This document shows, piece after piece, positions 4,073 to 35,119 of a stretch of 64,000 nucleotides of DNA. Below the pieces are notes generated by a model. It did not search any database. It had not been told where the DNA came from and worked only from the letters and a program-made list of their open reading frames with translations. A program made the translations under genes and the position numbers. Origin of the DNA: Sphingomonadales bacterium (GTDB lineage Bacteria; Pseudomonadota; Alphaproteobacteria; Sphingomonadales; Sphingomonadaceae); the NCBI GenBank assembly GCA_038210595.1, contig JBBQWN010000005.1:31862-95861 (forward strand). The letters run 5' to 3'. Numbering within the stretch: the first letter of the stretch is position 1; each line of letters starts with the position of its first letter.

Positions 4073-4156
4073 GCGCCGTCCCCCGTAACCAGTGACGCAT
4101 TCGCGCCGTTGCCGTCAGTAAGCGGCAGTGCGTCGCCGATAACAAGCCCTTGGGCG

Positions 4157-4186
4157 TTGACTTGGGAGCCACCTCGCCCACATAAG
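4157..4186 (+). promoter_or_regulatory. Candidate sigma70-type promoter for the suf operon (TTGACT-N18-CATAAG)
   Basis: Read directly in the 146-bp divergent gap between the M20 gene and the Rrf2 gene. Pattern match only. Confidence 0.25.
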
Positions 4187-4218
4187 CCGGACGAAATCGC
4201 TCCGCTTTAGGAACCCGC

Positions 4219-6517: not shown

Positions 6518-6518
6518 G

Positions 6519-14454: not shown

Positions 14455-14558
14455 GCGCGCAGGCTAGCAGCAGAACAGAGGCCGAACAACGGATCTGGAC
14501 CGGTAAAGGCTGCAGCCATGCGCCGCTGGCTACGACGGGCGCCAGCCTTGCCACCGCC

Positions 14559-16181
14559 ATGATTTTTGCCGAAACGCCAGCCGCCATGACCCCATCCCCC
14601 GAAGTGATCGACGCCGCGCGTGTCTCCAAGGCTTGGCCTTTCGAGGAGGCGCGCAAGCTAGTCGCGCGCTATCCGGGTGGGTTTCCGGCCGCCGGCGTGG
14701 TGTTCGAAACGGGCTATGGTCCGTCCGGCCTCCCGCACATCGGCACCTTCGGCGAGGTCGCGCGGACGACCATGGTGCGGCGGGCGTTCGAGCTGATCGC
14801 GCCTGGTGTGCCGACGCGCCTGATCGCGTTTTCCGACGACATGGACGGCTTTCGCAAAGTGCCGCCGGGCCTGCCGCAGCAGGACATGTTGCGAGCCCAT
14901 CTGAACCAGCCGCTCAGCCGCGTGCCCGACCCGTTCGGGACGCACGCCAGTTATGCCGCGCATAACAATGCCCGGCTGCGCGCCTTCCTCGACCGCTTCG
15001 GCTTCGACTACGAGTTTCTGTCGTCAACCGAATGCTACGCCTCGGGGCGGTTTGACGCGACACTGCGGCGGGTGCTGACGCACTACGACGCCGTCATCGA
15101 CGTCATCCTGCCGACGCTGGGGCCGGAGCGGCGCGCCACCTACTCGCCGTTCCTGCCGGTGCATCCGGTGACGGGTGAGGTGCTGCAGGTACCGCTGACC
15201 GGCCACGACGCCGCTGCCGGCACGATCAGCTTCGACGATGCCGACGGCGTGGCGCACACGGTGCCGGTCACCGGCGGCCACGCCAAGCTGCAGTGGAAGG
15301 TCGACTGGGCGATGCGCTGGGTGGCGCTCGGCGTCGACTACGAGATGGCAGGCAAGGACCTGATCGATTCGGTCACCCTGTCGAGCGCGGTGACGCGGGT
15401 GCTGGGCGCGCGGCCACCCGAGGGCTTTAACTATGAGCTGTTCCTCGATGCCGAGGGTACCAAGATCTCGAAGTCGAAGGGCAATGGCCTGACAATCGAC
15501 GAATGGCTGACCTATGCCGCACCGGAAAGCCTGGCGCTGTACATGTACCAGAGCCCGCGCAAGGCGAAGCGGCTGCATTTCGACGTCATCCCCAAGGCGG
15601 TCGAGGAGTATCATCAATTCCTCGGCAGCTACCCCGGCCAGCCGGTCGAGCAGCGGCTCGGCAACCCAGTGTTCCACATCCACGACGGCGCGCCGCCGGC
15701 GACCGATCTGCCGCTCAGCTTCGGCTTGCTGCTCAACCTGGTGACGGTGGCCGGTACCGACGACCCGGCGGTGCTGTGGGGCTTCGTATCGCGCTATGTG
15801 CCGGGCACCAACGCCGCGACGCACCCCGAGGTCGACGCGCTGGTGCGCTACGCGATACGCTATGCCCGCGACTTCGTTCTGCCGGGGTTAAGGCGGCGGG
15901 CGCCAGATCAGCGCGAGGCGGCGGCGCTCGCCGATCTCGACGGGCGTCTCGCCGCACTCGGACCCGAGGCGGATGCCGAGGCGTTCCAATTCGAGGTTTA
16001 TGAGGCCGGCAAAGCCGCCGGTTTCGAGCCGCTGCGCGAGTGGTTCAAGGCCCTGTACGAAACCTTGCTGGGCACCAGTCAGGGTCCGCGCATGGGTTCG
16101 TTCATCAAGCTGTACGGCCTTGCGGAAACCCGGCGATTGATCGCGGGGGCACGCGCGGCCGCAACGACGGAGACGGTGTAA
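14559..16181 (+). CDS. lysK: Class I lysine--tRNA ligase
   Basis: [12 protein letters not shown]...[16 protein letters not shown] (HIGH-like) ... KISKSKGNG (KMSKS) is the class I LysRS architecture common in alphaproteobacteria. An alternative ATG lies at 14586. Confidence 0.9.
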
Positions 16182-16939
16182 TGATGCGTTCGATCGTGAT
16201 GGCGGTGCTGCTCGCGACCGCCGCCCCGGCGTTTGCCGACGCGGGAGCAAGTTTCAAGGCCGGCCAGTGGCAGCAGGCGGCAGCGCTCGGTCGTTCCGAA
16301 GGCACGGCCGCCTCGCTGATGCTGGCGGGCCGCGCGACCCTGGCGGTGGCCGGGGCCCAGGAACGCGACAAGACAGCCGCGAAGGCGGCGATCGCGTCCG
16401 CTATCGCCGACTTCGACAAGGCCATCGCCAAGGCCCCGAACAGCCTCGAGGCACGGACCGAGAAGGCGATCGCCATCGGCTACCGTGCCAAGATCGACAA
16501 GTCGCCGGGCGACGGCAAGGAGGCGCGCGACCAGATGATGGCGGTGCTGGCCAAGGATCCCAATTTCGCGCTCGCCAACGCCGCCCTCGGCGCGTGGCAC
16601 GGGGGTGCGGTGGCGACCATCGGCAACTTTCTCGCCTCGACCTTGCTCGGTGCCAATCGCAAGGACATGGACAAGTATCTGACGCTGGCGATGGCGCGGG
16701 AGCCACACGAGATCATCCATCCGGTGACCTATGCGTTCACGCTCCTCGACATCGGTGCCGATGGCGCACCGAAGGCCACGACACTGCTGCGCACCGCGGT
16801 CAAGCTGCCGGTCAAGGATGCCTATGACGGCGTCAACCACAAGGCCGCGGTCCAGGTGTTGGCGCTGCTCGAGGCGAAGGACATCAAGGGCGCTCGGGCG
16901 CTGGTGAAGAAGCTTGAGCCGTTTAACAATGTCGGTTGA
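16181..16939 (+). CDS. Exported Ala-rich helical protein, unknown function
   Basis: ATG at 16181 overlaps the lysK stop (TAATG). [21 protein letters not shown] is a signal peptide. The track ORF's upstream extension lies inside lysK. Confidence 0.6.
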   Translation: MMRSIVMAVLLATAAPAFADAGASFKAGQWQQAAALGRSEGTAASLMLAGRATLAVAGAQERDKTAAKAAIASAIADFDKAIAKAPNSLEARTEKAIAIGYRAKIDKSPGDGKEARDQMMAVLAKDPNFALANAALGAWHGGAVATIGNFLASTLLGANRKDMDKYLTLAMAREPHEIIHPVTYAFTLLDIGADGAPKATTLLRTAVKLPVKDAYDGVNHKAAVQVLALLEAKDIKGARALVKKLEPFNNVG

Positions 16940-17162
16940 ACGGCGCCTGAAATCGCGGCAGTACGGCCGGCGGATGCGGTGGCCCGCCCGCGGCAATCCG
17001 TCCGACGGTGCGGTGCCGACTGTCGGAATATCTTACAGTTGCGCAGCGGGCAGAGTCATACCGCCTCCGTAAGCAACTCAGTACAATCGGCTCCGGCCAC
17101 GGTCCCGTATTGGCGCGAATCTTGCTTGGCTATATCGGCAACTGCGCGGCCGGAGCACGTCG

Positions 17163-21177: not shown

Positions 21178-22497
21178 TTGCCGCTGAAGCGCTCGCGCTT
21201 GTTCGCCTTTGCCGCACCCTACCTGCCGCTGTCTGCGGTCGGCCTGCCCGCTGTCGTCTATCTGCCGCCTTACTACGCCGCAGAACTCGGCCTGGGCCTG
21301 GAGGCGGTCGGGCTGATCTTTCTCGTTGTCAGGCTGATCGACATCCCGCTCGATCCGGTGCTCGGCCACTTAATTGATCGGACCAAAGGACGGCTCGGGC
21401 GCTTTCGACCGTGGCTGGCGGGCGGCGCGGCGCTGATGGCGGCAGGCGCGCTGGCGGTGTATTTCGCGGTACCCGGGATTTCGGCGGGTGCCGCGCTGGC
21501 CGGGCTGCTGGTTCTGTATTTCGGCTATTCGGCGATGATGGTGGCGCAGACCGCGTGGGGCGCGACGCTGTCCGACGACTATCATGAGCGCAGCCGGGTG
21601 TTCGGCTGGTGGATGGCCCTGACCCAGGTCGGCATGCTGCTGGTGCTGGCGCTGCCGCCGCTGCTACCGCGACTAATCCCGGGCGCGGGGATCGCGTCGG
21701 GCATTCACGGCATGGGTTGGCTGGTCATCGCTGGCGCGCCGCTTACCGCACTATTGTGCCTGTCGGTGCTGCCGGAGCGGGCGCGGACCGGCAACCACGC
21801 CAAGCTGGCTGACTTCGCGCGCGTCGTCGCCAACCCGCTGATGCGCCGCCTGCTGCTCGTTGACCTGCTCGCCAACCTGGCACCCGGGGTCACCGGCGCG
21901 CTGTTCCTGTTCTTTTTCCAGGCGGTGAAAGGATATTCGGCCGCTTCCGCGTCGGCGCTGCTGCTCGTCTACTTCGTCGCCGGTCTCGCGGGCGTGCCGC
22001 TGTGGACCCGGCTCGCGCGTGCCACGTCCAAGCATCGCGCGATCGTCGTCGCCCTGCTGTTCTATTGCGTGACGCAGAGCCTGACCGCGCTGCTGCCGCC
22101 CGGAAACTGGCCCGTGGCAGCGATCGGCATGGCGCTGGCCGGTGTGCCTTATGGTGCCACCGCGCTGTTGCTGCGCGCCATGCTCGCCGACCTGTCCGAT
22201 GCCGAGACGTTGGCGTCGGGCGGCGACAAGACCGCGCTGTTCTACGCCGCTGGGGTCGGCGTGCAGAAGCTGGGCTATGCAATCCCGGTCGGGGTGCTGT
22301 ACCCGGTGCTGAGTGCGCTCGGCTTTGTTGCGGTCAAGGGTGCAGGCAACAGTGCGGACGCGCTGAACGGTCTGACCCTGTTGTTCACCGCGCTGCCCGT
22401 GGTTCTGGCGCTTGCAGCCGCGTGGACCGTGCGTTCCTGGCCGATCGACGCAGCAGCGCAGTCGGCGACAGCGGCCGCGCTTCGCGGCAATGTTTGA
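21178..22497 (+). CDS. MFS transporter of the glycoside-pentoside-hexuronide (GPH/MelB-like) type, TTG start
   Basis: 439 aa and about 12 predicted TM segments. The N-terminal LIDIPLDPVLGHLIDRTKGRLGRFRPWL motif (D-x-x-G-x-x-x-D-R-T...GR.RPW) is characteristic of GPH symporters. GGAAGGGA lies upstream of the TTG. Confidence 0.8.
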   Translation: MPLKRSRLFAFAAPYLPLSAVGLPAVVYLPPYYAAELGLGLEAVGLIFLVVRLIDIPLDPVLGHLIDRTKGRLGRFRPWLAGGAALMAAGALAVYFAVPGISAGAALAGLLVLYFGYSAMMVAQTAWGATLSDDYHERSRVFGWWMALTQVGMLLVLALPPLLPRLIPGAGIASGIHGMGWLVIAGAPLTALLCLSVLPERARTGNHAKLADFARVVANPLMRRLLLVDLLANLAPGVTGALFLFFFQAVKGYSAASASALLLVYFVAGLAGVPLWTRLARATSKHRAIVVALLFYCVTQSLTALLPPGNWPVAAIGMALAGVPYGATALLLRAMLADLSDAETLASGGDKTALFYAAGVGVQKLGYAIPVGVLYPVLSALGFVAVKGAGNSADALNGLTLLFTALPVVLALAAAWTVRSWPIDAAAQSATAAALRGNV

Positions 22498-22506
22498 GTA
22501 ATTATG

Positions 22507-22532
22507 TTGCTATAAGGTCGCCCTTGTAGCAA
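22507..22532. promoter_or_regulatory. Near-perfect 26-bp palindrome TTGCTAtAAGGtcgcCCTTgTAGCAA between the transporter gene and pcs
   Basis: 11 of 13 positions pair by hand alignment. It sits 35 nt upstream of the pcs GTG. A second small palindrome, GGAAactgTTCC (22533-22544), follows. No U-tract. Confidence 0.4.
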
Positions 22533-22566
22533 GGAAACTGTTCCAATCGACTCGCAGGATGTATCC

Positions 22567-25500
22567 GTGGCGCTTCTTGACGACGACCTCACGCTTCGTG
22601 GCCCGGCATCCGCGCCGGCTGTCAACCCGGTCCGCGACCGCTCGGCTTGGGAAGCAATGCGCGCCGCAGTGCTTGCCGATCCCGGCCGCTTCCACGGCGA
22701 CATTGCCGGCGAGACCATCCACTGGCTGATCGACGGCGCCTGGCTGAGCCGCGACGGCGCGACCTGGAAGGGCTGGGACGCCGCCACCGCCGCCCCGGTC
22801 AGCCGCGACCTGGGCGCCGATTTCGCGCCCTGGACCAAGGCCTTCGACAACAGCGACGCGCCGCACTACCGCTGGTTCGCGGGCGCGCAGACCAATGCCG
22901 CGTTCAACGAGGTCGACCGGCATGTGCTCGCCGGCCACGGTGCGGAAGCCGCGCTGATCTTCGAGGGCGACCGCTGGGACATGGCGGCGAACAAGGGCCG
23001 CGGCGGCCCGGTGGACGAGTTTCCCGTCTCCCGCCGCACCCTGCTGCTGGAGAGCGCCAAGTGCGCGCTGGCGCTCAAAGCTTTAGGCCTGAAGCAAGGC
23101 GACAGCATCGCGATCAACATGCCGTCGATCGTGCCCCAGATCTTCTGGACGGAAGGCGCCAAGCGCGCCGGCGTCATCTACACGCCGGTGTTCGGCGGGT
23201 TCAGCGACAAGACGCTGAGCGACCGTATTCATGACGCCGGCGCCAAGGTCGTCATCACCGCCGACGGCGGCTACCGCACAGCGCAGGTCGCAGCGTTCAA
23301 GACCGCCTACACCGACCCGGCGCTCGACAACTACATCCCGGTCGAGGTCGCGCTGCGCTTGATCGACGGCCTCGATTTGCCCGCCGAGCAGAAGGCGGCA
23401 ATCCTCGAGGCCGCGAAGGCAGCGCTGAAGGGCGAAGTCACAGTCGAGCGCTCCGACGTCATGCGCGGCGTCGGCCGCGCCCTGGCGACGCTGGGCCTCG
23501 ACGCGGCAGAATCGAGCCAGGTCCGCATCGCGGTCGCCAGCGCACTGGTCGATTCGCCACCGCGCGTCGATGCCGTCATCGTCGTGAAGCACACCGCGAC
23601 GCCCGACCTGGTGTGGCGCTCGCGCGACCGCTGGAGCCACGAGCTGACCGACGCCGCGGGCAAGGAGATCCTCGCCGCCGCCGGGCTGGCATCGGAAGCC
23701 GACCTGCTGGCGCTGCCCGACGAGGCGTTCGTCGCGGCGATCTGGAAAGCCTGCCCGCCGCTGCCGGTCGATGCCGAATTCCCGCTGTTCGTCATCTATA
23801 CCAGCGGCTCGACCGGCAAGCCCAAGGGCGTCGTCCACGTCCACGGCGGCTATATCGCCGGCATCGCCCACACGATGAAGGTCGCGTTCGACGCGCGCCC
23901 CGGCGACGTGCTGTACGTCGTCGCCGATCCCGGCTGGATCACCGGGCAGAGCTACCTGATCTCGGCGGCGCTGACGACACGCACGACGACGCTGATCACC
24001 GAAGGCTCGCCGGTGTTCCCGCACGCCGGGCGCTTCGCCGCCAGCATCGAGCGCCACGGCGTCACCATCTTCAAGGCCGGCGTCACCTTCCTGAAGTCGG
24101 TGATGAGCGACCCGCAGAACCTGCGCGACCTGCGTTCGTGGGACATGAGCTCGCTGCGCGTCGCGACCTTCTGCGCCGAGCCGACGTCGCCGCCGGTGCA
24201 GGCGTTCGGCATGGCCGAGATCACGCCCTGGTACATCAATTCCTACTGGGCGACCGAGCACGGCGGTATCGCCTGGACGCAGTTCTACGGCGCCGCCGAC
24301 TTCCCGCTGCGCCCCGACGCCCACACCTGGGCGCTGCCGTGGATCGTCGGCGAGGTCCGTATTCCGACCGACGACGCCCTGACCCACGCCAAGTGGCGCG
24401 AGGCGGCGCGCGGCGAGAAGGGCGAGATCGTCATCGCGCGCCCCTATCCCTATCTCGCGCGCACCGTCTGGGGCGATGCCGCCAATGTCGGCCAGCCGGG
24501 CTGGAAGGGTGACGCGGCGCGCTGGGAGGGCAGCTACTGGACCCGCTGGGACGGCGCGCCTGCCTATACCCAGGGCGACTTCGCCGTGCAGCACGAGGAC
24601 GATTCGTTCAGCCTCCACGGCCGCAGCGACGACGTCATCAATGTCAGCGGCCACCGCATGGGCACCGAGGAGATCGAGGGCGCGATCCTGCGCGACCGGG
24701 CACTCGACCCCAACTCGCCGGTCGGCAACGTGCTCGTCGTCGGCGCGCCCGACGCGACCAAGGGCCTGACCCCGCTCGCCTTCGTCGTTGCCTCGCCGGG
24801 CCGCAAGATCACGCAAGCCGACCGCAACCGCCTGACCGAACTGGTGCGCAGCGAGAAGGGGCCGACCGCCGTCCCCGCCGATTATCTGGAGGTCAAGGCG
24901 TTCCCCGAGACGCGTTCGGGCAAATACGTTCGCCGCATGGTCCGCGCCCTGGTCGAGGGCGGCGACCTGGGCGACACCTCGACCCTGCGCAATCCCGAGA
25001 GCCTCGACGACCTGCGCGAGGTGATCACCACCTGGCAGCGCCGCCAGCACCTGAGCGAGACGCAGCAACTGTTCGAGCGCTACCGCTACTTCCGCATCCA
25101 GTACAACACTGTCGCGCCCGGCAAGAAGGTGGCGACGGTCACCATCACCAACCCGCCGGTCAATGCGCTGAACGAGCGCGCGCTCGACGAGCTCAACATC
25201 GTCGTCGATCACCTGTCGCACCGCGACGACGTGGTCGCGGTCGTGTTCACCGGCGAAGGCACCGCGAGCTTCGTCGCGGGTGCCGATATCCGCCAGTTCC
25301 TCGACGAGATTCACGACGAGGACGAGGCGCGCGTCCTGCCCAACAACGCCCAGCTGGCGTTCAACAAGATCGAGGCGATGGACAAGCCCTGCATCGCCGC
25401 CATCCAGGGCGTCGCGCTGGGCGGCGGCATGGAGTTCGCGCTCGCCTGCCATTACCGCATCGCGGAGCCACACGCCCGCTTCGGGCAGCCGGAGATCAGG

Positions 25501-27879
25501 TTGCGGCTGATCCCGGGGTATGGGGGAACGCAACGGTTGCCGCGATTGCTGGCGGCGCATGGCGGGCAGCAGGGACTGTCCACGGCGCTCGAGATGATCC
25601 TGGGCGGGCGCAGCGTCGATGCCGAATTCGCTCTAAATGCCGGGTTGATCGACGAGGTCGTCGACGGCAGCGAGGACGCGCTGAGCCGCGCGCATGCCTT
25701 GGTCCGTGAAATCGTCGGTGGCCGCGAAATTCGCCGCGCCGCCAGCGAGCCGAGCGCCGACCTCGACGCGGCGCTCGCCGACCCGTTCATCGAGAGCATC
25801 GTCAGCCAGCTCCAATGGGCGGGCCGCGCAGATGCCGGCCGCCGCGCCATCGATGCGATCCGCACCGGCTGGACGCAGGGCATCGCGGCAGGCCTGGCGC
25901 GCGAGGCCGACCATTTCGCGGCCGCGGTCGTCCACCCGCAGGGCGGCAAGACCGGCATCCGCCAGTTCATCGACAAGACGAGCCCGGCGCTGCCGGTGCG
26001 GAGCGCGGACGCGGACACCACCGCGCCGCTGCCGGTCGGCGCACCGTTCTTCCCGGGCATCACGCCGCTGCCGACACGCCAGCATGGCTTCGGCATTGCC
26101 CGCGATCCGGCCACCGGGCAGCCGGGTTTCGGCCCGCCGGGTACGCACGAGAAGGAGCTGATCGTCCCGGTCGACGAGCCTGCCGCCAACGACGCGCTCG
26201 TCTACATGCTGACCTCGGAGGTCAATTTCAACGACATCTGGGCGCTGACCGGCATTCCGGTGTCGCCGTTCGACGGGCACGAGAACGACTATCAGACCAC
26301 CGGGTCCGGCGGTGTCGGGCTGGTCGCGGCGCTGGGCTCCGAGGCGCGGGCCGAGGGGCGGTTGAAGGTCGGCGACCTGGTCGCGGTCTATTCGGGGACC
26401 AACGACCTGCTCAGTCCGCAGGTCGGGCGCGACCCGATGTTCGCGGACTTCGCCATCCAGGGTTACGAGACCGAGACCGGCAGCCATGCGCAGTTCCTCG
26501 TCACCCAGGCGCCGCAGCTCCACCACGTCCCGGCCGACCTGACGCTGGAGGCGGCGGGGAGCTATATCCTCAACCTCGGCACCGTCGTCCGCGCGCTGTT
26601 CACGACGCTGGAGATCGAGCCCGGCAAGCGGCTGTTCGTCGAGGGCTCCGCTACCGGCACCGGCCACGACGCGCTGAAGACCAGCATCCGCACCGGGCTG
26701 CACGTGACCGGCCTCGTCTCGTCGCCGAGCCGCGCGGCGTTCGTGAAGGAGGTCGGCGCGGTCGGCGCACTCGACCGGACCGATCCGCGCTTCAAGGCGG
26801 CGTTCACCGCCGTGCCCGAGGACCCGGCAAAGTGGGCGGCATGGGAGGCGGCGGGCCAGCCTTTGCTCGACGAGTATCGCGCCATCAACGACGGGCAGTT
26901 GGCGGACTATGCCGTCAGCCATGCCGGCGAGACGGCCTTCCCGCGCACCTTCCAGCTGCTCGGCGAGGGCGGCATCCTGGCCTTCTACGGCGCGTCGTCG
27001 GGCTATCACTTCACCTATGTCGGCAAGCCGGGTGCCAGCGACCCGACGACGATGCTGCGCCGGGCCAAGCTGCGCGGCGGCGAGGCGGTGCTGCTGTTCT
27101 ATGGCCCGTGCAGCCGCGAACTGGCCGATCCGACCGGCCTCGAGATGATCGAGGCGGCGCGTGCCGCCAAGGCCCGCACCGTCGTCGTCACCACCACCGA
27201 CGGCCAGCGCGAGTTCCTGCAGTCGCTGGGCTTCGAGGATGCCATCGCCGGCATCGTCAGCCTGGAGGATTTAAAGCGCCGCCAGGGCGACCAGTTCGAA
27301 TGGCCCGACGCGATGCCGCGCCTGACGCCGGCGCGCGACGACATCGAGACCTTCCGCAGCGAAGTGCGGGACTATCAGGAAAAGACGCTGAAGCCCTTCG
27401 GCGCGGCGGTCGGGCGGCTGTTGCGCTCCCCCGACAATCCGCGCGGGTCGCCCGACCTGATCATCGAGCGTGCCGGCCAGGATACGCTCGGGGCGTCGAC
27501 GGCGCTGGTCAAGCCGTTCACCGGGCGGGTCGTGTACTCCGAGGACTGCGCCGGGCGGCGCTACTCCTTCTACGCGCCGCAGGTGTGGACGCGGCAGCGG
27601 CGCATCCTGATGCCGACCGCCGAGATCCGCGGCACCCACCTGTGCAACGCCTACGAGGTGACGCGCATGAACGACATGATCGCGGCCGGCCTGCTCGACG
27701 TGACGCCGCCGACGGTGGTGCCGTGGGAGGGCCTGCCCGAGGCGCACCAGTCGATGTGGGAAAACCGCCATTCGGGCGCGACCTATGTCGTCAACCACGC
27801 GCTGCCGGCGTTGGGGCTGCGCAGCAAGGACGCGCTGCTTGAAGCCTGGGCGGCGCAAGAGGCGGAGTCAGCCAAGTGA
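22567..27879 (+). CDS. pcs: Trifunctional propionyl-CoA synthase (3-hydroxypropionyl-CoA synthetase / dehydratase / acrylyl-CoA reductase fusion)
   Basis: 1770 aa. GTG start with AGGA 7 nt upstream. The N-terminus is collinear with my recollection of Chloroflexus aurantiacus Pcs (NP.RDR..WEA.RAA.LADPG.FHG.IA...IHW; APxYRWF.G..TNA.FNEVDRHV; YTPVFGGFSDKTLSDRIH.AGA.VVIT). Ligase motifs are YTSGSTGKPKG and ETRSGKYVRR (about aa 1-840). Crotonase motifs are FVAGADI and GGGMEFALACH (about aa 840-1040). An MDR/crotonyl-CoA-reductase-like domain has VEGSATGTG (about aa 1190-1770). Confidence 0.95.
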   Translation: MALLDDDLTLRGPASAPAVNPVRDRSAWEAMRAAVLADPGRFHGDIAGETIHWLIDGAWLSRDGATWKGWDAATAAPVSRDLGADFAPWTKAFDNSDAPHYRWFAGAQTNAAFNEVDRHVLAGHGAEAALIFEGDRWDMAANKGRGGPVDEFPVSRRTLLLESAKCALALKALGLKQGDSIAINMPSIVPQIFWTEGAKRAGVIYTPVFGGFSDKTLSDRIHDAGAKVVITADGGYRTAQVAAFKTAYTDPALDNYIPVEVALRLIDGLDLPAEQKAAILEAAKAALKGEVTVERSDVMRGVGRALATLGLDAAESSQVRIAVASALVDSPPRVDAVIVVKHTATPDLVWRSRDRWSHELTDAAGKEILAAAGLASEADLLALPDEAFVAAIWKACPPLPVDAEFPLFVIYTSGSTGKPKGVVHVHGGYIAGIAHTMKVAFDARPGDVLYVVADPGWITGQSYLISAALTTRTTTLITEGSPVFPHAGRFAASIERHGVTIFKAGVTFLKSVMSDPQNLRDLRSWDMSSLRVATFCAEPTSPPVQAFGMAEITPWYINSYWATEHGGIAWTQFYGAADFPLRPDAHTWALPWIVGEVRIPTDDALTHAKWREAARGEKGEIVIARPYPYLARTVWGDAANVGQPGWKGDAARWEGSYWTRWDGAPAYTQGDFAVQHEDDSFSLHGRSDDVINVSGHRMGTEEIEGAILRDRALDPNSPVGNVLVVGAPDATKGLTPLAFVVASPGRKITQADRNRLTELVRSEKGPTAVPADYLEVKAFPETRSGKYVRRMVRALVEGGDLGDTSTLRNPESLDDLREVITTWQRRQHLSETQQLFERYRYFRIQYNTVAPGKKVATVTITNPPVNALNERALDELNIVVDHLSHRDDVVAVVFTGEGTASFVAGADIRQFLDEIHDEDEARVLPNNAQLAFNKIEAMDKPCIAAIQGVALGGGMEFALACHYRIAEPHARFGQPEIRLRLIPGYGGTQRLPRLLAAHGGQQGLSTALEMILGGRSVDAEFALNAGLIDEVVDGSEDALSRAHALVREIVGGREIRRAASEPSADLDAALADPFIESIVSQLQWAGRADAGRRAIDAIRTGWTQGIAAGLAREADHFAAAVVHPQGGKTGIRQFIDKTSPALPVRSADADTTAPLPVGAPFFPGITPLPTRQHGFGIARDPATGQPGFGPPGTHEKELIVPVDEPAANDALVYMLTSEVNFNDIWALTGIPVSPFDGHENDYQTTGSGGVGLVAALGSEARAEGRLKVGDLVAVYSGTNDLLSPQVGRDPMFADFAIQGYETETGSHAQFLVTQAPQLHHVPADLTLEAAGSYILNLGTVVRALFTTLEIEPGKRLFVEGSATGTGHDALKTSIRTGLHVTGLVSSPSRAAFVKEVGAVGALDRTDPRFKAAFTAVPEDPAKWAAWEAAGQPLLDEYRAINDGQLADYAVSHAGETAFPRTFQLLGEGGILAFYGASSGYHFTYVGKPGASDPTTMLRRAKLRGGEAVLLFYGPCSRELADPTGLEMIEAARAAKARTVVVTTTDGQREFLQSLGFEDAIAGIVSLEDLKRRQGDQFEWPDAMPRLTPARDDIETFRSEVRDYQEKTLKPFGAAVGRLLRSPDNPRGSPDLIIERAGQDTLGASTALVKPFTGRVVYSEDCAGRRYSFYAPQVWTRQRRILMPTAEIRGTHLCNAYEVTRMNDMIAAGLLDVTPPTVVPWEGLPEAHQSMWENRHSGATYVVNHALPALGLRSKDALLEAWAAQEAESAK

Positions 27880-30800
27880 ACGCACCGATCGTCGAGCCGC
27901 TGGTCGGCACCTCCGGGCGGCTCGCCGGCAAGATTGCGCTGGTCACCGGCGCGGCCGGCAACCTCGGCGGCGAGATCGTCCGCCACTACCTGCGCGAGGG
28001 CGCGACGGTGGTGATGACCGGGCGCACCCCGGCGCGCACCGATGCGGCGCGCGAGGCTGTTCTGGCAGAGACAGGTGCCGATCCGGCGCGGGTCTCGACC
28101 GTCGTGCTCGACGGCGCGGACGCCGCATCGGTCCGCGCCGGCATCGCCGCGGTTGTGGAGCGCCACGGTCGCATCGACATCCTCGTCAACAATGCGGGAT
28201 CGGCGGGGCCGAAGGCGCCGCTGGAGCGCGTGCCGCTGACCGCCGACGAACTGGCGAACGGCGATACCGAGACGGTCAGCGCGGCGGCGCGCAGCCTGCT
28301 TGGCGTCGCCTGGAATCTGGTCCGCGCGGCGGCGGACGCGATGCCGCCGGGCGGGTCGATCGTCAACGTCTCGACCATCTTCAGCCGCACCCAATATTAT
28401 GCGCGCACGGCCTATGTCGTGCCCAAGGCGGCAATGAATGCGCTGTCGAAGACACTGGCGCGCGAGCTGGGCTCCCGCGGCATCCGGGTCAACACGCTGT
28501 TCCCCGGCCCGATCGAGAGCGACCGCATCCGCACCGTCTTCGCGGCGATGGACAAGTTGCAGGGCAAGCCGGCGAACGCCACCGCCGACCATTTCACCGG
28601 CATCATGGCGTTGGCCCGTGGTGCGGCGGCAGCGGATGCCAAGCCGCTGCCGACGCCGACCGATATCGCCGCCACCTGCGTGTTTCTCGGTTCCGACGAG
28701 AGCGCCGCCTTCACCGGCCACGATTTCGAGGTCACGCACGGCATGGATGTGCCGAAGGAATCGCGTTCGACCTATCTGTCGCGGCCGACGATGCGCTCCA
28801 TCGATGGCGCGGGCCTCGGCATTGTCGTGGCCGGCGGCGACAGCCTTGCGGACGCGCTGGAGATTGCGCGAGTGCAGGCAAACTGCGGGGCGGCGGTCTT
28901 GCTCGGCTTCGGCAGCGACGCCGCGGTCGCGATGGTGCAGCGCCGCCTCGATGCCGAGCCCGCGACCGGCGCACTGACGCTGGCGCGCTTCGACCGTAGC
29001 GATCCGGCCCAGATGGAGGCGGCGCTCGAAGCCTTTGGAGCTGAGATCACCGGCGCGATCATCTTGCCCGAGTTTGGCAACGACTTCTTCAACGGGCCGC
29101 TGCACGCGGCGTCGGACGAACAGGTCGACAGCTTCATCGACGCCGAGCTGACCGGCGCCGTCGCCGTCGCGCGGTCGCTGACGCGCTACTGGAAGCGCCA
29201 CGACGCGCTGGTCCACGAGCCGCGCTTCGTGTTCGTCGGCGGGCCGTCGGACGGCGGCGACAACGGTTGGAACGGCCTGCTCGCGGCTGCCTGCGAGCAG
29301 CTGGTGCGGGTCTGGCGCGACGAGAGCCAGGTCGATGTCGCAGCCGGCAAGCGGCGGCAGGCGGAGTGGGGCAACCAGATCGTCCGCACCGACAACCACG
29401 AGCCGGAGAATGTCCGCTTCACCGCCGGCCAGTGCGCGCGCATCCTGCTGAAGGAGCGCAAGGTCCAGCCGATCAGCCTGTACCTGCCCGAATCGATCGG
29501 CGAGGCGACCGGCGCGCGCGTCGCCATGGTCGGGTTCGCCGAGAACATCACCGGGCTGCATCTCGGAAAGGTCGCGCTTATCACCGGCGGCTCGGCCGGC
29601 ATCGGCGGTCAGGTCGCGCGGCTGCTGGCGCTGGCGGGTGCCAAGGTCATGCTCGTTGCACGCCGCGAGAGCGAACTGGCGACAATGCGCGCGCGTATCG
29701 TCGGCGAGCTCGAGGACGTCGGCTTCTCCGGCGTCGAGCGGCGCGTCCGCACGCTGTCGGGCATCGACGTCAGCGACCACGCGGCGCTCAACAAGGCGGT
29801 CGACGAGACCATCGCCGCGTTCGGGCGCATCGACTATCTGATCAACAATGCCGGCATCTCCGGCGCCGAGGAGATGGTCGTCGACATGGACGTCGCCGCC
29901 TGGCGGCGGACGCTGGATGCGAATTTGATCTCCAACTACGTCCTCGCGCATGCCGTGGTGCCAAGGATGAAGGCGCAGGGTTCCGGCTACATCCTCAACG
30001 TCAGCAGCTATTTCGGAGGCGAGAAGCACCTTGCCGTCGCCTACCCCAACCGCGCCGACTATGCGGTCAGCAAGGCTGGACAGCGGGCGATGGCGGAGGC
30101 GTTCGCGCGGTCGCTGGGTCCGGAAATTCAGATCAACGCCATTGCGCCGGGCCCGGTCGACGGCGACCGCCTGTCGGGCAAAGACGGCAAGGCCGGACTG
30201 TTCGACCGCCGCGGCCGGCTGATTCTGGAAAACAAGCGGCTAAATGCCGTCCACTCGGCGGTCATCCGCGCCGTCCGGGGCGGCGCGGCGATAGACACCG
30301 TACTCGGTCGCCTGGCGCGCAACGACTCGGTCCGCATCGCCCATGACCGTGACAATCCGCGTGAGCTTCGCGATCTGGCGCTATCCTGTGCGCAGGAAGG
30401 CGACGAAACCTGCAGTTGGGACCGTTTCATCCTGACCCGCGAGATCGCCGCGCGGCTTGTCCGCCGCCTGCGGCTGGGCGGCTACCTGACCGCGTCGCCG
30501 GCCTGGGCCACACGTCCCTCTACGGACGAAGCCGATGGCAGCTGGCTGCTGCGCGTACCGCTCGACGACAAGCCCTGGCTGCCGCCGGCGCGGATCGCGG
30601 CCGAGGCGGCCAAGGTCGGTGGCGGCGTCACCTCGCTGCTCAACCTCGGCCGCATGCCGACCGAGGGCGAGGTTGCGCAGGCGACGGTGTTCTTCCTCGC
30701 CGACCGCGCCGTCAGCGGCGAATGCTTCATGCCGTCGGGCGGCCTGAGCCTCGAACGCTCGACCGTCGAGCGCGAACTGTTCGGCAGCCCCAAGGCCGAG

Positions 30801-31514
30801 CGGCTGGAGCAGATGGCGGGCAAGACCGTGTGGATTATCGGGGAGCACCTCGTCGATTATCTGGCGGGCTGCGCCCAGGCCTTTGCCGACCTAGCGGTGG
30901 CGCGCGTCGTGTTCATCACGCGAACAGATGAAGGGGCGGAGACGCTGACCGCCACCGTTGCCGGCGCTCCGCTCGAATGCGTGACGGCCGGCGATGACCT
31001 GGAGGGGGCGCTGGATCGTGCCCTTGCGCAATGGGGACCACCGACGACCATCGTTTCGTCGCCGTTCACGCCGCTGCCCGACCGCCTGTTCGGCGACGAA
31101 AGCCTGAGTCCGGCCGCGTTTGCGACTCTGTGCGAGGACAATCTGACTCATCACTTCCGGGTCAGCCGCAAGGCCTCGCTCTACGACCATTGCCAGCTGG
31201 TACTGGTCACCCCCGATGTCGAGATCGGGCGCACCGGCCCGGCGTTCGCACTGGCCAACTTCATCAAGACCTCGCTTCACGCCTTCACCGCGACGCTGGC
31301 GGTCGAGAACGAGCGGCTGATCCACGATGTGCCTGTCAATCAGATCAACCTGACCCGGCGCGTTCGCAGCGAGGAACCCCGCAACCGTGACGAACATGAG
31401 GAGGAGGTTCGCCGGTTCGCCCGCGCCGTGTTGCTGGCCGGCGCGCCGCTGCCCGACGCGGAGGACTCGCGTTACCGCGCCCGCATCTATCGCGGCATGT
31501 CGATGACCGTCTAA
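27876..31514 (+). CDS. mcr: Bifunctional malonyl-CoA reductase (malonyl-CoA -> malonate semialdehyde -> 3-hydroxypropionate), four SDR-type domains
   Basis: 1212 aa. GTGA overlap with pcs. Long stretches are near-identical to the Chloroflexus Mcr sequence as I recall it: GRLAGKIAL.TG.AGN.G; NVSTIFSR..YY.R..YV.PKAA.NALS; RGIRVNT.FPGPIESDRIRTVF; GLHLGKVALITGGSAGIGGQ; GSGYILNVSSYFGGEK; YPNRADYAVSKAGQRAMAE; GPEIQINAIAPGPV.GDRL; FALANFIKT.LHAFTAT. TGxxGxxG and YxxxK motifs are present in both halves. Confidence 0.95.
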   Translation: MNAPIVEPLVGTSGRLAGKIALVTGAAGNLGGEIVRHYLREGATVVMTGRTPARTDAAREAVLAETGADPARVSTVVLDGADAASVRAGIAAVVERHGRIDILVNNAGSAGPKAPLERVPLTADELANGDTETVSAAARSLLGVAWNLVRAAADAMPPGGSIVNVSTIFSRTQYYARTAYVVPKAAMNALSKTLARELGSRGIRVNTLFPGPIESDRIRTVFAAMDKLQGKPANATADHFTGIMALARGAAAADAKPLPTPTDIAATCVFLGSDESAAFTGHDFEVTHGMDVPKESRSTYLSRPTMRSIDGAGLGIVVAGGDSLADALEIARVQANCGAAVLLGFGSDAAVAMVQRRLDAEPATGALTLARFDRSDPAQMEAALEAFGAEITGAIILPEFGNDFFNGPLHAASDEQVDSFIDAELTGAVAVARSLTRYWKRHDALVHEPRFVFVGGPSDGGDNGWNGLLAAACEQLVRVWRDESQVDVAAGKRRQAEWGNQIVRTDNHEPENVRFTAGQCARILLKERKVQPISLYLPESIGEATGARVAMVGFAENITGLHLGKVALITGGSAGIGGQVARLLALAGAKVMLVARRESELATMRARIVGELEDVGFSGVERRVRTLSGIDVSDHAALNKAVDETIAAFGRIDYLINNAGISGAEEMVVDMDVAAWRRTLDANLISNYVLAHAVVPRMKAQGSGYILNVSSYFGGEKHLAVAYPNRADYAVSKAGQRAMAEAFARSLGPEIQINAIAPGPVDGDRLSGKDGKAGLFDRRGRLILENKRLNAVHSAVIRAVRGGAAIDTVLGRLARNDSVRIAHDRDNPRELRDLALSCAQEGDETCSWDRFILTREIAARLVRRLRLGGYLTASPAWATRPSTDEADGSWLLRVPLDDKPWLPPARIAAEAAKVGGGVTSLLNLGRMPTEGEVAQATVFFLADRAVSGECFMPSGGLSLERSTVERELFGSPKAERLEQMAGKTVWIIGEHLVDYLAGCAQAFADLAVARVVFITRTDEGAETLTATVAGAPLECVTAGDDLEGALDRALAQWGPPTTIVSSPFTPLPDRLFGDESLSPAAFATLCEDNLTHHFRVSRKASLYDHCQLVLVTPDVEIGRTGPAFALANFIKTSLHAFTATLAVENERLIHDVPVNQINLTRRVRSEEPRNRDEHEEEVRRFARAVLLAGAPLPDAEDSRYRARIYRGMSMTV

Positions 31515-31524
31515 AGAGGCGGCC

Positions 31525-32469
31525 ATGAACGATTGGCTGGATTTCGAGAAACCCGTGGCGGCACTCGCCGACAGCGCGGCAGCGCTGCGTACGGCGGGGA
31601 CGCCCGAAGCGCTGGCGGAGGCCCCGCGGCTCGAGGAACGGGCGAAGCGGTTGCTGGCCGACCTCTACGGTCGCCTCACCCCGGCCCAGCGAATGCAGGT
31701 GGCGCGCCACCCGGCGCGGCCGCACTTCAAGGATTATGTCGCCGCACTGATCGAAGATTTCGTGCCGCTGGCGGGCGACCGTGGGTTCGGCGAGGATGCG
31801 GCGATCGTCGGTGGCATCGGTCGATTGCAGGGGCGCAGCGTTGTCGTGATCGGCCACGAGAAAGGCAACGACACCGCCAGCCGGGTAAAGCACAACTTCG
31901 GCATGGGCCGGCCGGAGGGCTATCGGAAGGCGACACGCCTAATGCAGCTGGCTGGCCAGTTCGCGCTTCCCGTCGTTACTTTCGTCGATACGCCCGGCGC
32001 CTATCCGGGCTTGGAAGGCGAAGCGCGCGGACAGGCGGAGGCGATCGCCCGCGCCACCCAAGCCTGCCTTGAGCTGCCAGTACCAATGGTTGCGGCGATC
32101 GTCGGCGAGGGCATGTCGGGCGGCGCGATCGGGCTGGCCGCCGCCAACAAGCTGCTGATGTTCGAGCATGCCGTCTATGCGGTCATCTCGCCCGAGGGCT
32201 GCGCCTCTATCCTGTGGCGCGGCGAGGCCGGCAGGGCGGCGGACGCCGCCGCCGCGATGAAGATCACCGCGGCCGACCTGCTCCGCCTCGGCATCATCGA
32301 CCGGATCGTCTACGAGCCCCCCGGCGGAGCGCACCGCGATCCGGCAACCGCGATGGCGCGGCTGGGTAGTGCGATCGGCGAAGAGCTTGGCAGTCTCGCC
32401 GGGCTGGACGCCGCGGCGCTGAGAAAGCAACGCCGCGACAAGTTCATCGCAATGGGCCGCAACCTGTAG
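31525..32469 (+). CDS. accA: Acetyl-CoA carboxylase carboxyltransferase alpha subunit
   Basis: 314 aa. MNDWLDFEKPVAAL...ARHPARPHFKDYV...RPEGYRKA.RLM.LA..F.LPVVTFVDTPGAYPG..GEARGQAEAIA. It starts 10 nt after the mcr stop, with AGAGG as a Shine-Dalgarno-like element. Confidence 0.95.
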   Translation: MNDWLDFEKPVAALADSAAALRTAGTPEALAEAPRLEERAKRLLADLYGRLTPAQRMQVARHPARPHFKDYVAALIEDFVPLAGDRGFGEDAAIVGGIGRLQGRSVVVIGHEKGNDTASRVKHNFGMGRPEGYRKATRLMQLAGQFALPVVTFVDTPGAYPGLEGEARGQAEAIARATQACLELPVPMVAAIVGEGMSGGAIGLAAANKLLMFEHAVYAVISPEGCASILWRGEAGRAADAAAAMKITAADLLRLGIIDRIVYEPPGGAHRDPATAMARLGSAIGEELGSLAGLDAAALRKQRRDKFIAMGRNL

Positions 32470-32474
32470 AGGCT

Positions 32475-32508
32475 TGCCCCGCCGACCCCCTCCAGGTCCG
32501 GCGGGGCA
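32475..32508. terminator. GC-rich hairpin (10-bp stem TGCCCCGCCG / CGGCGGGGCA, 14-nt loop) between convergent accA and mucR
   Basis: The inverted repeat was read directly. It lies 6 nt after the accA stop and 7 nt after the mucR stop. No clear U-tract on either side. Confidence 0.55.
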
Positions 32509-32514
32509 GGTCGC

Positions 32515-32988
32515 TCAGGCGGTCTTGCTGACGCGCGGCTTGCGCGGCTTCGGCGCGTCGCCGTTCGCGGCCGGCACCCGCGGCTTGCGGCCGAGGCCGA
32601 GCCGCTTGGCGACTTCGCGCCGGGCGTCCGAATAACCCGGCGCAACCATCGGATAGGTCGCCGGAAGATTGTAGCGCGAGCGATACTCTTCCGGAGTCAT
32701 GCCGTGGCCGGTCAGGTGGCGCTTCAAGCTCTTGTACGGCTTGCCGTCGATCAGCGAGAGAATGAAATCGCGGTTGGCGAGCGACTTACGCGCGGTAACC
32801 GCCGGCTGATGCGTCTCGGCGCTGCCACCGACGGTTTCGGTGCCGGGGCCCGACAGGCCGCTCAGCGCGGCATGAGTCGAGGCGATCAACGCCGGCAGAT
32901 CATCGACGCGGACATTGTTGTTCGCGACGAACGCCGAGAGCAGCTCGACTGTCAGTTCAGTGAGATCCTGTTGCTGTGTAGTATCCAT
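32515..32988 (-). CDS. mucR: MucR/Ros family zinc-finger transcriptional regulator
   Basis: MDTTQQQDLTELTVELLSAFVANNNV...SLIDGKPYKSLKRHLTGHGMTPEEYRSRYNLPATYPMVAPGYS is the diagnostic Ros/MucR domain. The start was taken at the internal ATG (complement of 32986-32988). Confidence 0.9.
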   Translation of the reverse strand: MDTTQQQDLTELTVELLSAFVANNNVRVDDLPALIASTHAALSGLSGPGTETVGGSAETHQPAVTARKSLANRDFILSLIDGKPYKSLKRHLTGHGMTPEEYRSRYNLPATYPMVAPGYSDARREVAKRLGLGRKPRVPAANGDAPKPRKPRVSKTA

Positions 32989-33158
32989 GGATTGACCCTT
33001 AACCATAAGAATGCCCCGCCGCGCGCGTCGAGAACGAGGCGACTTACACTCTGCTTTACGGAACCGGTCAAGATTCAAATGAAGCGGGCTTGATTGTCGC
33101 CGCCTAACATGCCGCCAGACCGATCATTCAGACTTGCCAGATCACGACAATCTGGTCA

Positions 33159-34082
33159 GTGGAGCCGATGACAATTGACCTCGCAATTCTCTATGAGCAT
33201 CCGGCATGGTTCATGCCGCTATTCGCTGCACTAGACCGTACCAACATCGAGTATCAGGCGGTCACGATCGGTGACCACAGCTTCGATCCTGGCGGGTCGC
33301 AGCCGCGGGCGCGGGTGGTGTTCAACCGCGTTGCGATGTCGAGCTTCCTGCGCGACGCCGAGCATCCGATCTTCTATGCGCAAGCGCTGTTCGATCACTT
33401 GCAAGGGCTCGGCACCCGGGTCGTCAACGGCAGTGCGGCGCTGGCCATCGATGCGTCGAAGGCGCGGCAGCTCAGTCTGCTCGCGCGCCTCAACCTCGGC
33501 ATACCGGCGACGCGGGTCGTCCATCGCCGTGCGGCGCTGCCGGCGGCTGCCGCGAGCCTGCGCTTCCCGGTGGTGGTCAAGGCCGACATCGGCGGGTCGG
33601 GCGCGGGCATCATCCGCTATGACACGCCCGACGCGCTATCCGCAGCGGTCGCGGACGGCACGACGCCGGTCAGCGTCAACGGCGTGCTGCTGGTGCAGGA
33701 ATATGTGCCCCGCCGCGGCGGCATGGTGACCCGCATCGAGACCCTGGGCGGCAAGTTCTTGTACGCCATCGACATCGCCAGCGACGGCGACACCTTCGAT
33801 CTTTGCCCGGCCGACGCCTGCAGCATCGACCGCGCGCCGGTCACCTTCACTGCCGTGCAGCCCCCGCCTGAACTGATCGACGCCGCCGAACGTATCGCCG
33901 CCGCGGCGCAGCTCGATGTCGGCGGCATCGAGTTCCTGATCGACGACCGCGACGGCGCCCCGCGCTTCTACGACATCAACGCGCTGTCCAACTTCGTCGC
34001 CCAGCCGCTCGACGTGCTCGGCTGGGATCCGCACGACCGGCTGGTAACTTTTTTGCGGGCCGTCATCGAAGAGGCACGATGA
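33159..34082 (+). CDS. ATP-grasp domain protein (RimK/glutathione-synthetase-like ligase)
   Basis: 307 aa. KARQLSLLARLNLGIPATRVV...FPVVVKADIGGSGAGI...LLVQEYVP...GGIEFLIDDRDG..RFYDINA matches the ATP-grasp core. An alternative ATG lies at 33168. ATGA overlap with the next gene. Confidence 0.75.
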   Translation: MEPMTIDLAILYEHPAWFMPLFAALDRTNIEYQAVTIGDHSFDPGGSQPRARVVFNRVAMSSFLRDAEHPIFYAQALFDHLQGLGTRVVNGSAALAIDASKARQLSLLARLNLGIPATRVVHRRAALPAAAASLRFPVVVKADIGGSGAGIIRYDTPDALSAAVADGTTPVSVNGVLLVQEYVPRRGGMVTRIETLGGKFLYAIDIASDGDTFDLCPADACSIDRAPVTFTAVQPPPELIDAAERIAAAAQLDVGGIEFLIDDRDGAPRFYDINALSNFVAQPLDVLGWDPHDRLVTFLRAVIEEAR

Positions 34083-35119
34083 TGCGCTTTGGTTTCTGGA
34101 TGCCGGTGTTCGGCGGTTGGCTGCGCAATGTCCCCGACGAGGGCATGACCGCGGACTGGCCCTATGTGAAGGCGCTCACTCAGCGCGCCGAGGCGACGGG
34201 CTGGGACCTGACCCTGATCGCGGAGCTGAACCTGAACGACATCAAGGGCATCGACGCGCCTTGCCTCGACGCCTGGTCGACCGCCGCCGCGCTCGCCGCG
34301 GTCACGGAGCGGCTGGAACTGATGGTCGCGGTGCGGCCCAATTTCCACCACCCGGCGCTGTTTGCCAAGGCGGCCGCCAACATCGACCGCATCGCCGGCG
34401 GCCGGCTGACGCTGAACGTCGTGTCGTCGTGGTGGGCGGACGAGGCCAAGCAATACGGCCTGCAGTTCGACCAGCACGACAATCGCTATGCCCGCACCGC
34501 GGAATGGCTAGCGGTGGTCGACGGACTGTGGACCGAGGACCGCTTCACGTTCGAGGGGCAGTTCTACAGCACCGACGCGGCGATCTGTGCGCCCAAGCCG
34601 ATGGCGACGCCGCGCCCCACCGTCTACGCCGGCGGTGAGAGCGAGGCGGCGAAGGCGATGATCGCCGAACATTGCGATGCCTTCGTCATGCATGGCGATC
34701 CGGTCGATGCGGTTGCCCCCAAGATCGCGGGCATGGCGGCGCGGCGGCTGGCGGCAGGCAAGCCGCCGATGACCTATGGCATGGCCGCCTATGCCATCGT
34801 TCGCGATACCGAGGCGGAGGCGGAGGCCGAACTGGCGCGCATCACCACGCTGAGCGGCGAGCCGCCGGCGGGCTACGACAATTTCGAGCAGTGGTTGTCG
34901 GGCACGCAGCTGGAGCGCGAGCTGAAGATCCGTGAATATTCGGTGTCGAACCGCGGCTTGCGGCCCGACTTCGTCGGCACCCCGGCGCAGGTGATCGAGC
35001 GCATCGCGGCGTTCGAAGCGGCGGGGCTGAACCTGCTGCTGCTCCAGATGAGCCCGCAGGCGGACGAAATGGACCGCTTCGCCGACCAGGTCATCGCACC
35101 GTACCGGGCTCGCGGTTAG
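34079..35119 (+). CDS. Luciferase-like (LLM class) flavin-dependent monooxygenase, SsuD/SfnG-like architecture
   Basis: 346 aa. MMRFGFWMPVFGGW...RLTLNVVSSWW..E...YG...DHD.RY.RT.EWL.VVDGLWTE..FTFEG.FY is collinear with FMNH2-dependent sulfone/alkanesulfonate monooxygenases. Confidence 0.85.
   Translation: MMRFGFWMPVFGGWLRNVPDEGMTADWPYVKALTQRAEATGWDLTLIAELNLNDIKGIDAPCLDAWSTAAALAAVTERLELMVAVRPNFHHPALFAKAAANIDRIAGGRLTLNVVSSWWADEAKQYGLQFDQHDNRYARTAEWLAVVDGLWTEDRFTFEGQFYSTDAAICAPKPMATPRPTVYAGGESEAAKAMIAEHCDAFVMHGDPVDAVAPKIAGMAARRLAAGKPPMTYGMAAYAIVRDTEAEAEAELARITTLSGEPPAGYDNFEQWLSGTQLERELKIREYSVSNRGLRPDFVGTPAQVIERIAAFEAAGLNLLLLQMSPQADEMDRFADQVIAPYRARG

Follow-up and report, generated by a model that had tools for sequence, protein, structure and literature searches.

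The window, that is, the whole stretch of 64,000 nucleotides analysed here (contig JBBQWN010000005.1 of a Sphingomonadales bacterium), carries on its plus strand between positions 21178 and 32469 four closely packed genes, which in the list of open reading frames (ORFs) encode a transporter, propionyl-CoA synthase (pcs), malonyl-CoA reductase (mcr) and the carboxyltransferase alpha subunit of acetyl-CoA carboxylase (ACC; accA), and it is the placement of accA directly behind mcr that concerns us. The pcs gene (22567..27879, +) encodes a protein of 1770 aa, in which acyl-CoA ligase, enoyl-CoA hydratase and enoyl reductase domains are united (Pfam AMP-binding, ECH_1 and ADH_zinc_N). Its residues 22-1768 align with 2629 bits to PDB entry 6eqo, which we take to be the Pcs of Erythrobacter NAP1, and the exact 1770-aa product is present in the protein collection searched. 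The start of mcr (27876..31514, +) overlaps the pcs stop by 4 nt, and the gene encodes a bifunctional malonyl-CoA reductase of 1212 aa with two short-chain dehydrogenase/reductase (SDR) domains (Pfam), which aligns over its full length to the Roseiflexus MCR 8hi4 (1140 bits) and also to PDB entries 6k8s and 6k8v, presumably fragments of a Porphyrobacter MCR. More than 100 homologues of this Mcr were found at 67-91% identity, several of them carrying the JGI name malonyl-CoA reductase. The window therefore holds a two-SDR Mcr and a three-domain Pcs, adjacent and on the same strand. The mcr stop codon TAA occupies 31512-31514 and the ATG of accA (31525..32469, +; 314 aa) begins at 31525, leaving a gap of 10 nt (31515..31524, +) with an AGAGG element at 31515-31519, 5 nt before the ATG; the first-pass annotation of this DNA had pointed to just this spacing and element, and both are borne out by the ORF and the spacer sequence. 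Downstream follows a convergent gene for a Ros/MucR-family regulator (32515..33078, -; Pfam ROS_MUCR 138.6 bits), which bounds the unit and is likewise found downstream of accA in two loci of the same genus, L083 and L164. Among the scanned genes of the window none was identified as accB, accC, accD, mcl, mch, mct, meh or smtAB, in agreement with the earlier remark that the other genes of the 3-hydroxypropionate bi-cycle (mcl, mch, mct, meh) do not lie here.

Judged by profile and structure alignments, the ORF at 31525-32469 encodes a genuine full-length AccA. It scores 423.8 bits against the equivalog profile NF004344 (cutoff 357), with residues 2-312 covering profile positions 3-315 of 319, as well as 355.9 bits against TIGR00513 (cutoff 319.3) and 414.9 bits against PF03255 (ACCA). 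The protein aligns end to end with the solved AccA structures from E. coli and S. aureus, and its top match among solved structures is 9m70_B, a 273-aa AccA chain (285 bits), which ranks above E. coli AccA. In the alignment to E. coli AccA (8uxz), a full-length homologue, the DTPGAYPG, ERGQ-like and SGGA motifs are retained. The SGG glycines of AccA are oxyanion residues of the catalytic core; they are kept in the window protein, whose glycine motif is EGMSGGA, a Met having taken the place of the Gly that precedes SGG. Only two changes unique to the window AccA fall on columns that are at least 95% conserved.

The proximity of accA to mcr is not peculiar to this genome. Metagenome contigs were scanned with an alignment of the Mcr C-terminus, which gave 80 true mcr loci, and three further loci were added; the adjacency count was restricted to the 77 mcr loci with at least 1 kb of downstream sequence. 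A loss of adjacency in relatives, which the first-pass annotation had named as evidence that would speak against its proposal, is not what these loci show: accA begins between -4 and +31 nt from the mcr stop in 56 of the 77, lies 3.5 kb away in 1 and is absent in 20. The loci are, in phylogenetic terms, not independent of each other, and the 56 do not stand for 56 separate events. A GTGA stop/start overlap joins the two genes in 10 of the loci with an mcr-adjacent accA. The pcs-mcr-accA layout was also found in the complete genome of Sphingomonas sp. HMP6 (L165, AP022672.1), in L166 and in the Porphyrobacter-like loci L167 and L168. Exact-sequence look-up assigned linked AccAs to Erythrobacter or Erythromicrobium ramosus, Erythrobacter sanguineus, Porphyrobacter sp. 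SLTP, Novosphingobium sp. Chol11 and Sphingomonas metagenome-assembled genomes (MAGs), and L001 is a Sandaracinobacter MAG. Since the linked AccAs are mutually only 62-81% identical and spread across several genera, the mcr-accA arrangement is old. No mcr was found on PLSDB plasmids.

The loci that have no accA after mcr form three groups, namely a Blastomonas/Sphingomonas ursincola group, a group with a GDSL lipase and a few singletons. In the first two groups the pcs-mcr genes are homologous to those of the window, with Mcr proteins 63-72% identical over the regions aligned and closer matches for short C-terminal fragments, but accA does not follow: mcr is either the last gene, as in the Blastomonas/S. 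ursincola group, or is followed by a gene for a PEP-CTERM GDSL lipase. In L084-L096, which belong to the former group, some 630-1250 nt after mcr contain no filter-passing ORF before a convergent gene is reached, and accA remnants were not detected downstream of mcr in the loci without accA. A PEP-CTERM GDSL/SGNH lipase is the first gene after mcr in L118, L132, L136, L155 and L169, and an MFS_1 transporter gene usually comes after it. In L169, pcs is broken into three ORFs (4477-9961), either by frameshifts or by long-read assembly errors, and an aroQ-accB-accC cluster lies at 21552-23693, about 8 kb downstream of mcr; as this placement of accB-accC is seen in L169 only, it was taken as coincidence.

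Linkage of an ACC subunit to mcr and pcs had been put forward in the earlier annotation as new evidence; the association of pcs, mcr and accA is, however, already mentioned in the legend to a supplement of a 2023 study of Porphyrobacter sp. ULC335 (PMC10674011), and no further analysis of the mcr-linked accA was found in the literature searched. In ULC335 the three genes are KVF90_08260 (pcs), 08265 (mcr, ending at 1761785) and 08270 (accA, starting at 1761795), with a gap of 9 nt (PMC10674011). Clusters of ULC335, Erythrobacter, Novosphingobium, HMP6 and Sandaracinobacter hold the same three genes as the window in the same order and on the same strand, accA starts about 10 nt after mcr in both, and the other bi-cycle genes are not clustered with them. 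The same role, co-assimilation of CO2, has been proposed for them; it is not a novelty of the first-pass annotation either, because CO2 co-assimilation via a partial bi-cycle in aerobic phototrophs is credited by the same paper to Zarzycki and Fuchs 2011 (PMC10674011). The clusters differ from the window in their accA, which in the ULC335-type clusters is of the L-type described below and mostly encodes 308 aa, whereas the window gene is of the H-type and encodes 314 aa. The search for a second accA that had been recommended gave a positive answer in one such genome, since ULC335 carries a second, unlinked accA, KVF90_10520 of 945 bp for a protein of 314 aa (PMC10674011 supplements), which makes its linked accA an additional copy. 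Among the entries listed in the supplements, ULC335 has one accD (13125) and one accC/accB pair (PMC10674011). Chloroflexus aurantiacus uses the same enzymes (ACC, Mcr and Pcs) to convert acetyl-CoA to propionyl-CoA and possesses the full 3-hydroxypropionate bi-cycle, unlike the window with its lack of mcl, mch, mct and meh, and its accA, mcr and pcs are unlinked (Caur_1647, Caur_2614 and Caur_0613; PMC3150298).

The linked AccAs form, as far as tree and profiles tell, a lineage of their own, and the window AccA lies outside it. A neighbour-joining tree of 181 AccAs and two PDB sequences, rooted on E. coli AccA and calculated without bootstrap, places all 56 other mcr-adjacent AccAs in one clade (L-type). 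The sister clade (H-type) contains 120 ordinary AccAs together with those of the window, L083, L081, L164 and Polymorphobacter megasporae; the 120, among which Polymorphobacter, Sphingomonas, Allosphingosinicella, Sphingomicrobium and Sphingosinicella are named, are the best database matches of the window AccA and were in this way picked by similarity to the window protein. Key internal branches of the tree are short (0.005 and 0.020), and the basal L-type members are weakly separated. Profile hidden Markov models were moreover built from half of each AccA group and the other halves scored, the difference being given as L-type minus H-type bits: held-out linked AccAs reached +18 to +114 bits and held-out ordinary AccAs -96 to -38 bits. 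The window AccA scored -56.5 bits, inside the held-out H-type range, and the AccAs of L083, L081 and L164 scored -49.6, -53.0 and -45.2 bits, respectively, while the linked AccAs of Sphingomonas sp. HMP6, L166 and L001 reached +61.9, +24.6 and +25.0 bits. The HMP6 protein is 76-78% identical to the linked AccAs of Erythrobacteraceae and 69% to ordinary Sphingomonas AccAs, which are themselves mutually 90% identical. Because tree and profiles separate the two groups and two accA copies are documented in one L-type genome, that of ULC335, the L-type AccA, mostly of 308 aa, is best described as a paralogue that travels with pcs-mcr. By tree position and profile scores alike, the window AccA is not a member of the L-type lineage; it is by these measures an ordinary H-type AccA, orthologous to the unlinked accA of L164, the product of which is 86% identical. 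Relative to the literature searched, both the L-type lineage and the filling of the same slot by an ordinary accA in the window appear to be new.

One part of the window accA departs from its relatives. Across a tract at about 31925-32155 (aa 135-212), identity to L083 drops to 69-80% in DNA and 79% in protein, compared with about 86-94% in DNA and 95% in protein for the rest of accA, and L083, L081 and L164 agree with one another over the same residues. Of the 16 substitutions counted by eye in the tract, no more than 2 bring the sequence closer to the L-type consensus and about 5 give residues like those of E. coli; among the changes is that of Gly to Met in EGGSGGA. Such a tract might stem from recombination with a distant accA, from a change in constraint or from an assembly that mixes populations. 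A chimera of an L-type 5' end and an H-type 3' end is not supported, the window AccA being H-like throughout its length and so few of the substitutions pointing to the L-type.

Within the genus the arrangement has a history of its own. L083, 85% identical to the window in DNA, is collinear with it over transporter, pcs, mcr, accA and mucR. L081 matches the window up to the mcr stop, after which a block of 3.5 kb precedes accA; it comprises a PhdYeFM antitoxin/PIN toxin pair immediately after mcr (13677-14329), a gene for a fusion protein of 595 aa (14326-16113) and a GDSL lipase gene (16202-17149). In L082, pcs-mcr is followed by unrelated genes, and L164, which stems from the same sample, carries LysR, a fusion protein of 599 aa (8159-9958), accA, a peptidase and mucR, and no mcr. 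The 595-aa and 599-aa proteins are encoded just upstream of accA, are 83% identical to one another and are absent from the window; they combine an N-terminal biotinyl/lipoyl domain with a full carboxyltransferase domain and could act as a single-chain biotin-dependent carboxyltransferase or decarboxylase. In a tree of Mcr C-termini the genus falls among the loci without accA after mcr, and these are nested in a larger clade with L-type accA. In the simplest reading of these sequences, the L-type copy would have been lost and an ordinary accA then juxtaposed to mcr secondarily. Just upstream of accA, L081 contains an apparent decayed copy of the mcr 3' end, in which 24 of 45 nt match the window (shuffle mean 12.2, P = 0.0002), and after its mcr stop lies a stretch that resembles an accA start (P about 0.02). 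These apparent remnants suggest that mcr and accA were directly adjacent at an earlier time and that the 3.5-kb block was inserted later. The GDSL lipase of the block is, however, orthologous to the lipase found after mcr in sister lineages, which makes this order of events a tentative one. By chance, a same-strand accA within 3.5 kb downstream of mcr would be expected with a probability of about 0.1% (an estimate for a genome of about 3.5 Mb), and it is seen in three of the four genomes of the genus.

The signals that could delimit a transcript lie at the two ends of pcs-mcr-accA. Between the convergent accA (+) and mucR (-) a G+C-rich hairpin (32471..32512) is predicted with -35.9 kcal/mol (z = -3.67; 0 of 200 shuffles fold as well), which is devoid of a U-tract and probably forms the 3' boundary of both the accA and the mucR transcript. 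It had been called the only strong hairpin of the region; among the intergenic sequences this holds, but the coding regions contain imperfect inverted repeats as well. The mcr-accA junction shows no significant structure (z = -0.15), and no promoter- or terminator-like site was found in or near its spacer on the plus strand by a sigma-70-based scan, which is weak for this taxon. Upstream of pcs, the 69-nt spacer that separates it from the transporter gene is AT-richer and contains, just before pcs, the dyad TTGCTA-N14-TAGCAA (22507..22532) as a candidate operator or promoter element. Of 45 loci, 19 have the pattern TT[GA]C-N18-G[CT]AA at a constant spacing before pcs (shuffles: mean 0.45, maximum 3), namely the window, L081, L082 and L083, which are all four genomes of the genus, and 15 L-type loci, and it is positioned 57-101 nt upstream of the site aligned with the window pcs start. 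This dyad, TTGC-N18-GCAA, is a feature defined in the present analysis and not in the literature; it may serve the pcs-mcr unit as operator or promoter. In many L-type loci, the dyad is followed by TTTTGCTGCAT.

The transporter (21178..22497, +) belongs to the MFS/GPH family (Pfam MFS_2 231 bits; TIGR00792 gph 163 bits, which is below the cutoff of that model), and although its gene is co-oriented with pcs, its membership in the unit is doubtful. Among the relatives only L083 has a homologue, other genes occupying the position in L081 and L082, and the upstream neighbours of pcs differ more widely, with the MFS transporter in the window and EAL/QueF, LysR with DabBA, or a TonB receptor elsewhere. 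As the transporter is common to L083 alone and the conserved dyad lies between transporter and pcs, the conserved regulated unit most likely begins at pcs. Of the single operon of transporter, pcs, mcr and accA that had been proposed, the tight placement of accA behind pcs-mcr with no terminator between them therefore stands, and the transporter drops out as a conserved member. The LysR/DabBA neighbourhood is that of HMP6, in which a DabB-DabA fusion of 1336 aa (1-3279, -) and a LysR gene (3389-4339, +) lie directly upstream of pcs. In this protein a proton-antiporter-like domain is joined to DabA, an inorganic-carbon pump. DabBA/LysR was found beside pcs in HMP6 only among the loci compared, for which the metagenome contigs cover just about 0.7-1 kb upstream.

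The reading that we favour, with a probability of about 0.58, is that pcs, mcr and accA form a co-transcribed and functionally coupled unit that runs in the carboxylating direction. The three genes would be transcribed as one unit, with a functional accA as the last gene, from a regulated promoter just upstream of pcs to the hairpin, and the level of AccA would rise through co-expression along with those of Mcr and Pcs. ACC converts acetyl-CoA, bicarbonate and ATP to malonyl-CoA, Mcr reduces malonyl-CoA with 2 NADPH to 3-hydroxypropionate, and Pcs forms propionyl-CoA from 3-hydroxypropionate, ATP, CoA and NADPH. With AccA encoded in the same transcript, malonyl-CoA supply would be coupled to the two enzymes that drain malonyl-CoA, and the resulting conversion of acetyl-CoA to propionyl-CoA, the first half of the 3-hydroxypropionate bi-cycle, would serve CO2 co-assimilation or dispose of reductant. 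The accA of E. coli does not lie with genes of a malonyl-CoA-consuming pathway, whereas the window accA stands in operon position behind mcr. Both co-transcription and flux direction are deduced here from gene arrangement, and since the carboxyltransferase half-reaction is reversible, flux direction cannot be read from linkage alone. The repeated linkage and the DabBA pump of HMP6 support the carboxylating direction, and neither proves it; the pump beside pcs fits consumption of bicarbonate in this one genome.

Several observations weigh against such a coupled unit. In the one transcriptome available, that of ULC335, pcs and mcr share a temporal cluster (wild type, 2; mutant, 3), and the linked accA sits apart from them in cluster 9; the second accA is in clusters 15 and 1, and the fold changes of mcr (-1.68 and -2.12) and of the linked accA (-0.90 and -0.56) have the same sign (PMC10674011). 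The Blastomonas and GDSL-lipase groups possess pcs-mcr with no adjoining accA, so linkage is not required. The arrangement is also unstable within the genus itself, being direct in the window and L083, split by 3.5 kb in L081 and absent in L082/L164, the AccA tree has no bootstrap, short key branches and an ordinary set chosen by similarity to the window protein, and the 77 mcr loci are not independent of each other. The window accA is probably the only accA of the organism, and a sole accA is needed for lipid synthesis regardless of pcs and mcr, which implies constitutive transcription or an internal promoter. Finally, an extra alpha subunit may not raise ACC activity without extra AccD, AccB and AccC. 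Some of these points would equally suit a neutral juxtaposition, in which a recent local deletion or recombination moved the housekeeping accA behind mcr, where a promoter of its own within the mcr 3' end, or unselected read-through, drives its expression and where it plays no pathway-specific role. That the window accA is of the H-type and orthologous to an unlinked gene, that the layout differs among four close relatives, that sister lineages have pcs-mcr without accA and that even the dedicated linked accA of ULC335 lies outside the pcs/mcr temporal cluster all agree with such a history. Yet it is very unlikely that chance would place a member of the canonical mcr partner family on the same strand at a distance of 10 nt, the adjacency has been kept between the window and L083 at their level of DNA divergence, the mcr 3'-end remnant before accA in L081 suggests that direct adjacency is ancestral, and the scan, with its weakness for this taxon, found no promoter-like site in the mcr 3' region. 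We consider neutral juxtaposition unlikely, while granting that it has to be taken seriously.

A further possibility is that another accA elsewhere in the genome provides for lipid synthesis and that the mcr-linked gene is an extra copy of H-type descent. ULC335 with its two accA genes offers a precedent, and a loosened or changed constraint on such a copy could account for the divergent tract at aa 135-212. This sits poorly with the occurrence of the same H-type gene in unlinked form in L164, from the same sample as the accA-less pcs-mcr of L082, with a window AccA that scores well above the equivalog cutoff and has so few unique changes at conserved columns, and with the lack of a second accA within the 64-kb window, and we regard an accessory copy as improbable. 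The gene order might also be explained by assimilation of external 3-hydroxypropionate, in which the transporter would import the compound, derived from the breakdown of dimethylsulfoniopropionate (DMSP), acrylate or beta-alanine, for conversion to propionyl-CoA by Pcs, and in which Mcr and the carboxyltransferase would run in reverse from 3-hydroxypropionate via malonyl-CoA to acetyl-CoA. The co-oriented transporter gene 69 nt upstream of pcs and the textbook reversibility of the carboxyltransferase half-reaction would permit this, but the transporter is not conserved with pcs-mcr, the conserved dyad separates the two, and the DabBA pump of HMP6, in its single genome, points to consumption of bicarbonate. 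Moreover, Mcr is NADPH-dependent and physiologically reductive in characterised systems according to textbook knowledge and to PMC10470521, and there is very little to recommend this explanation. Compared with these alternatives, the coupled pcs-mcr-accA unit remains our preferred reading.

Mcr and Pcs are common in aerobic anoxygenic phototrophs and other Proteobacteria without a full cycle of CO2 fixation, and according to recent surveys their role there is unresolved. The conserved placement of an ACC subunit gene in operon position speaks, at the genomic level, for carboxylation of acetyl-CoA as the source of the malonyl-CoA that Mcr uses, all the more so as a distinct AccA lineage accompanies mcr. 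The L-type accA can probably be deleted without lethality, since a second copy exists, which would make direction and size of the flux testable. The window serves as a contrast case, in which the same layout is made from an ordinary accA, and bears on the question of gene position versus isoform. On a bolder and more tentative interpretation, which we would not call the probable one, selection for co-transcription of mcr and accA was strong enough to produce the layout twice, once with a dedicated paralogue that accompanies pcs-mcr across families of Sphingomonadales and again in the window, after loss of the paralogue, by recruitment of the housekeeping accA. If this were true, the L-type AccA would be an ACC isoform specialised for carbon assimilation, possibly free of feedback from lipid synthesis, and carboxylation would be the direction in which aerobic phototrophs operate their partial bi-cycle.

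The remainder of the window is ordinary chromosome, with genes for the SUF system, lysyl-tRNA synthetase, Rho, HemE, AroE and a sulfate ABC transporter. Neither Rfam families nor tRNAs were detected in the window. On the minus strand at 52228-54282 lies an ORF of 684 aa that matches uroporphyrinogen decarboxylase at residues 350-683 only; its N-terminal half has no Pfam match, the ORF shows a lower third-position GC content (0.78), and it probably represents either an over-extended start or an unannotated N-terminal extension. Next to mucR, at 33159-35119 (+), a RimK-like ATP-grasp gene and a gene for an SfnG-like luciferase-type monooxygenase (dimethylsulfone monooxygenase family) share 4 nt, and this pair is located near the sulfate ABC transporter and a porin at 39-44 kb.

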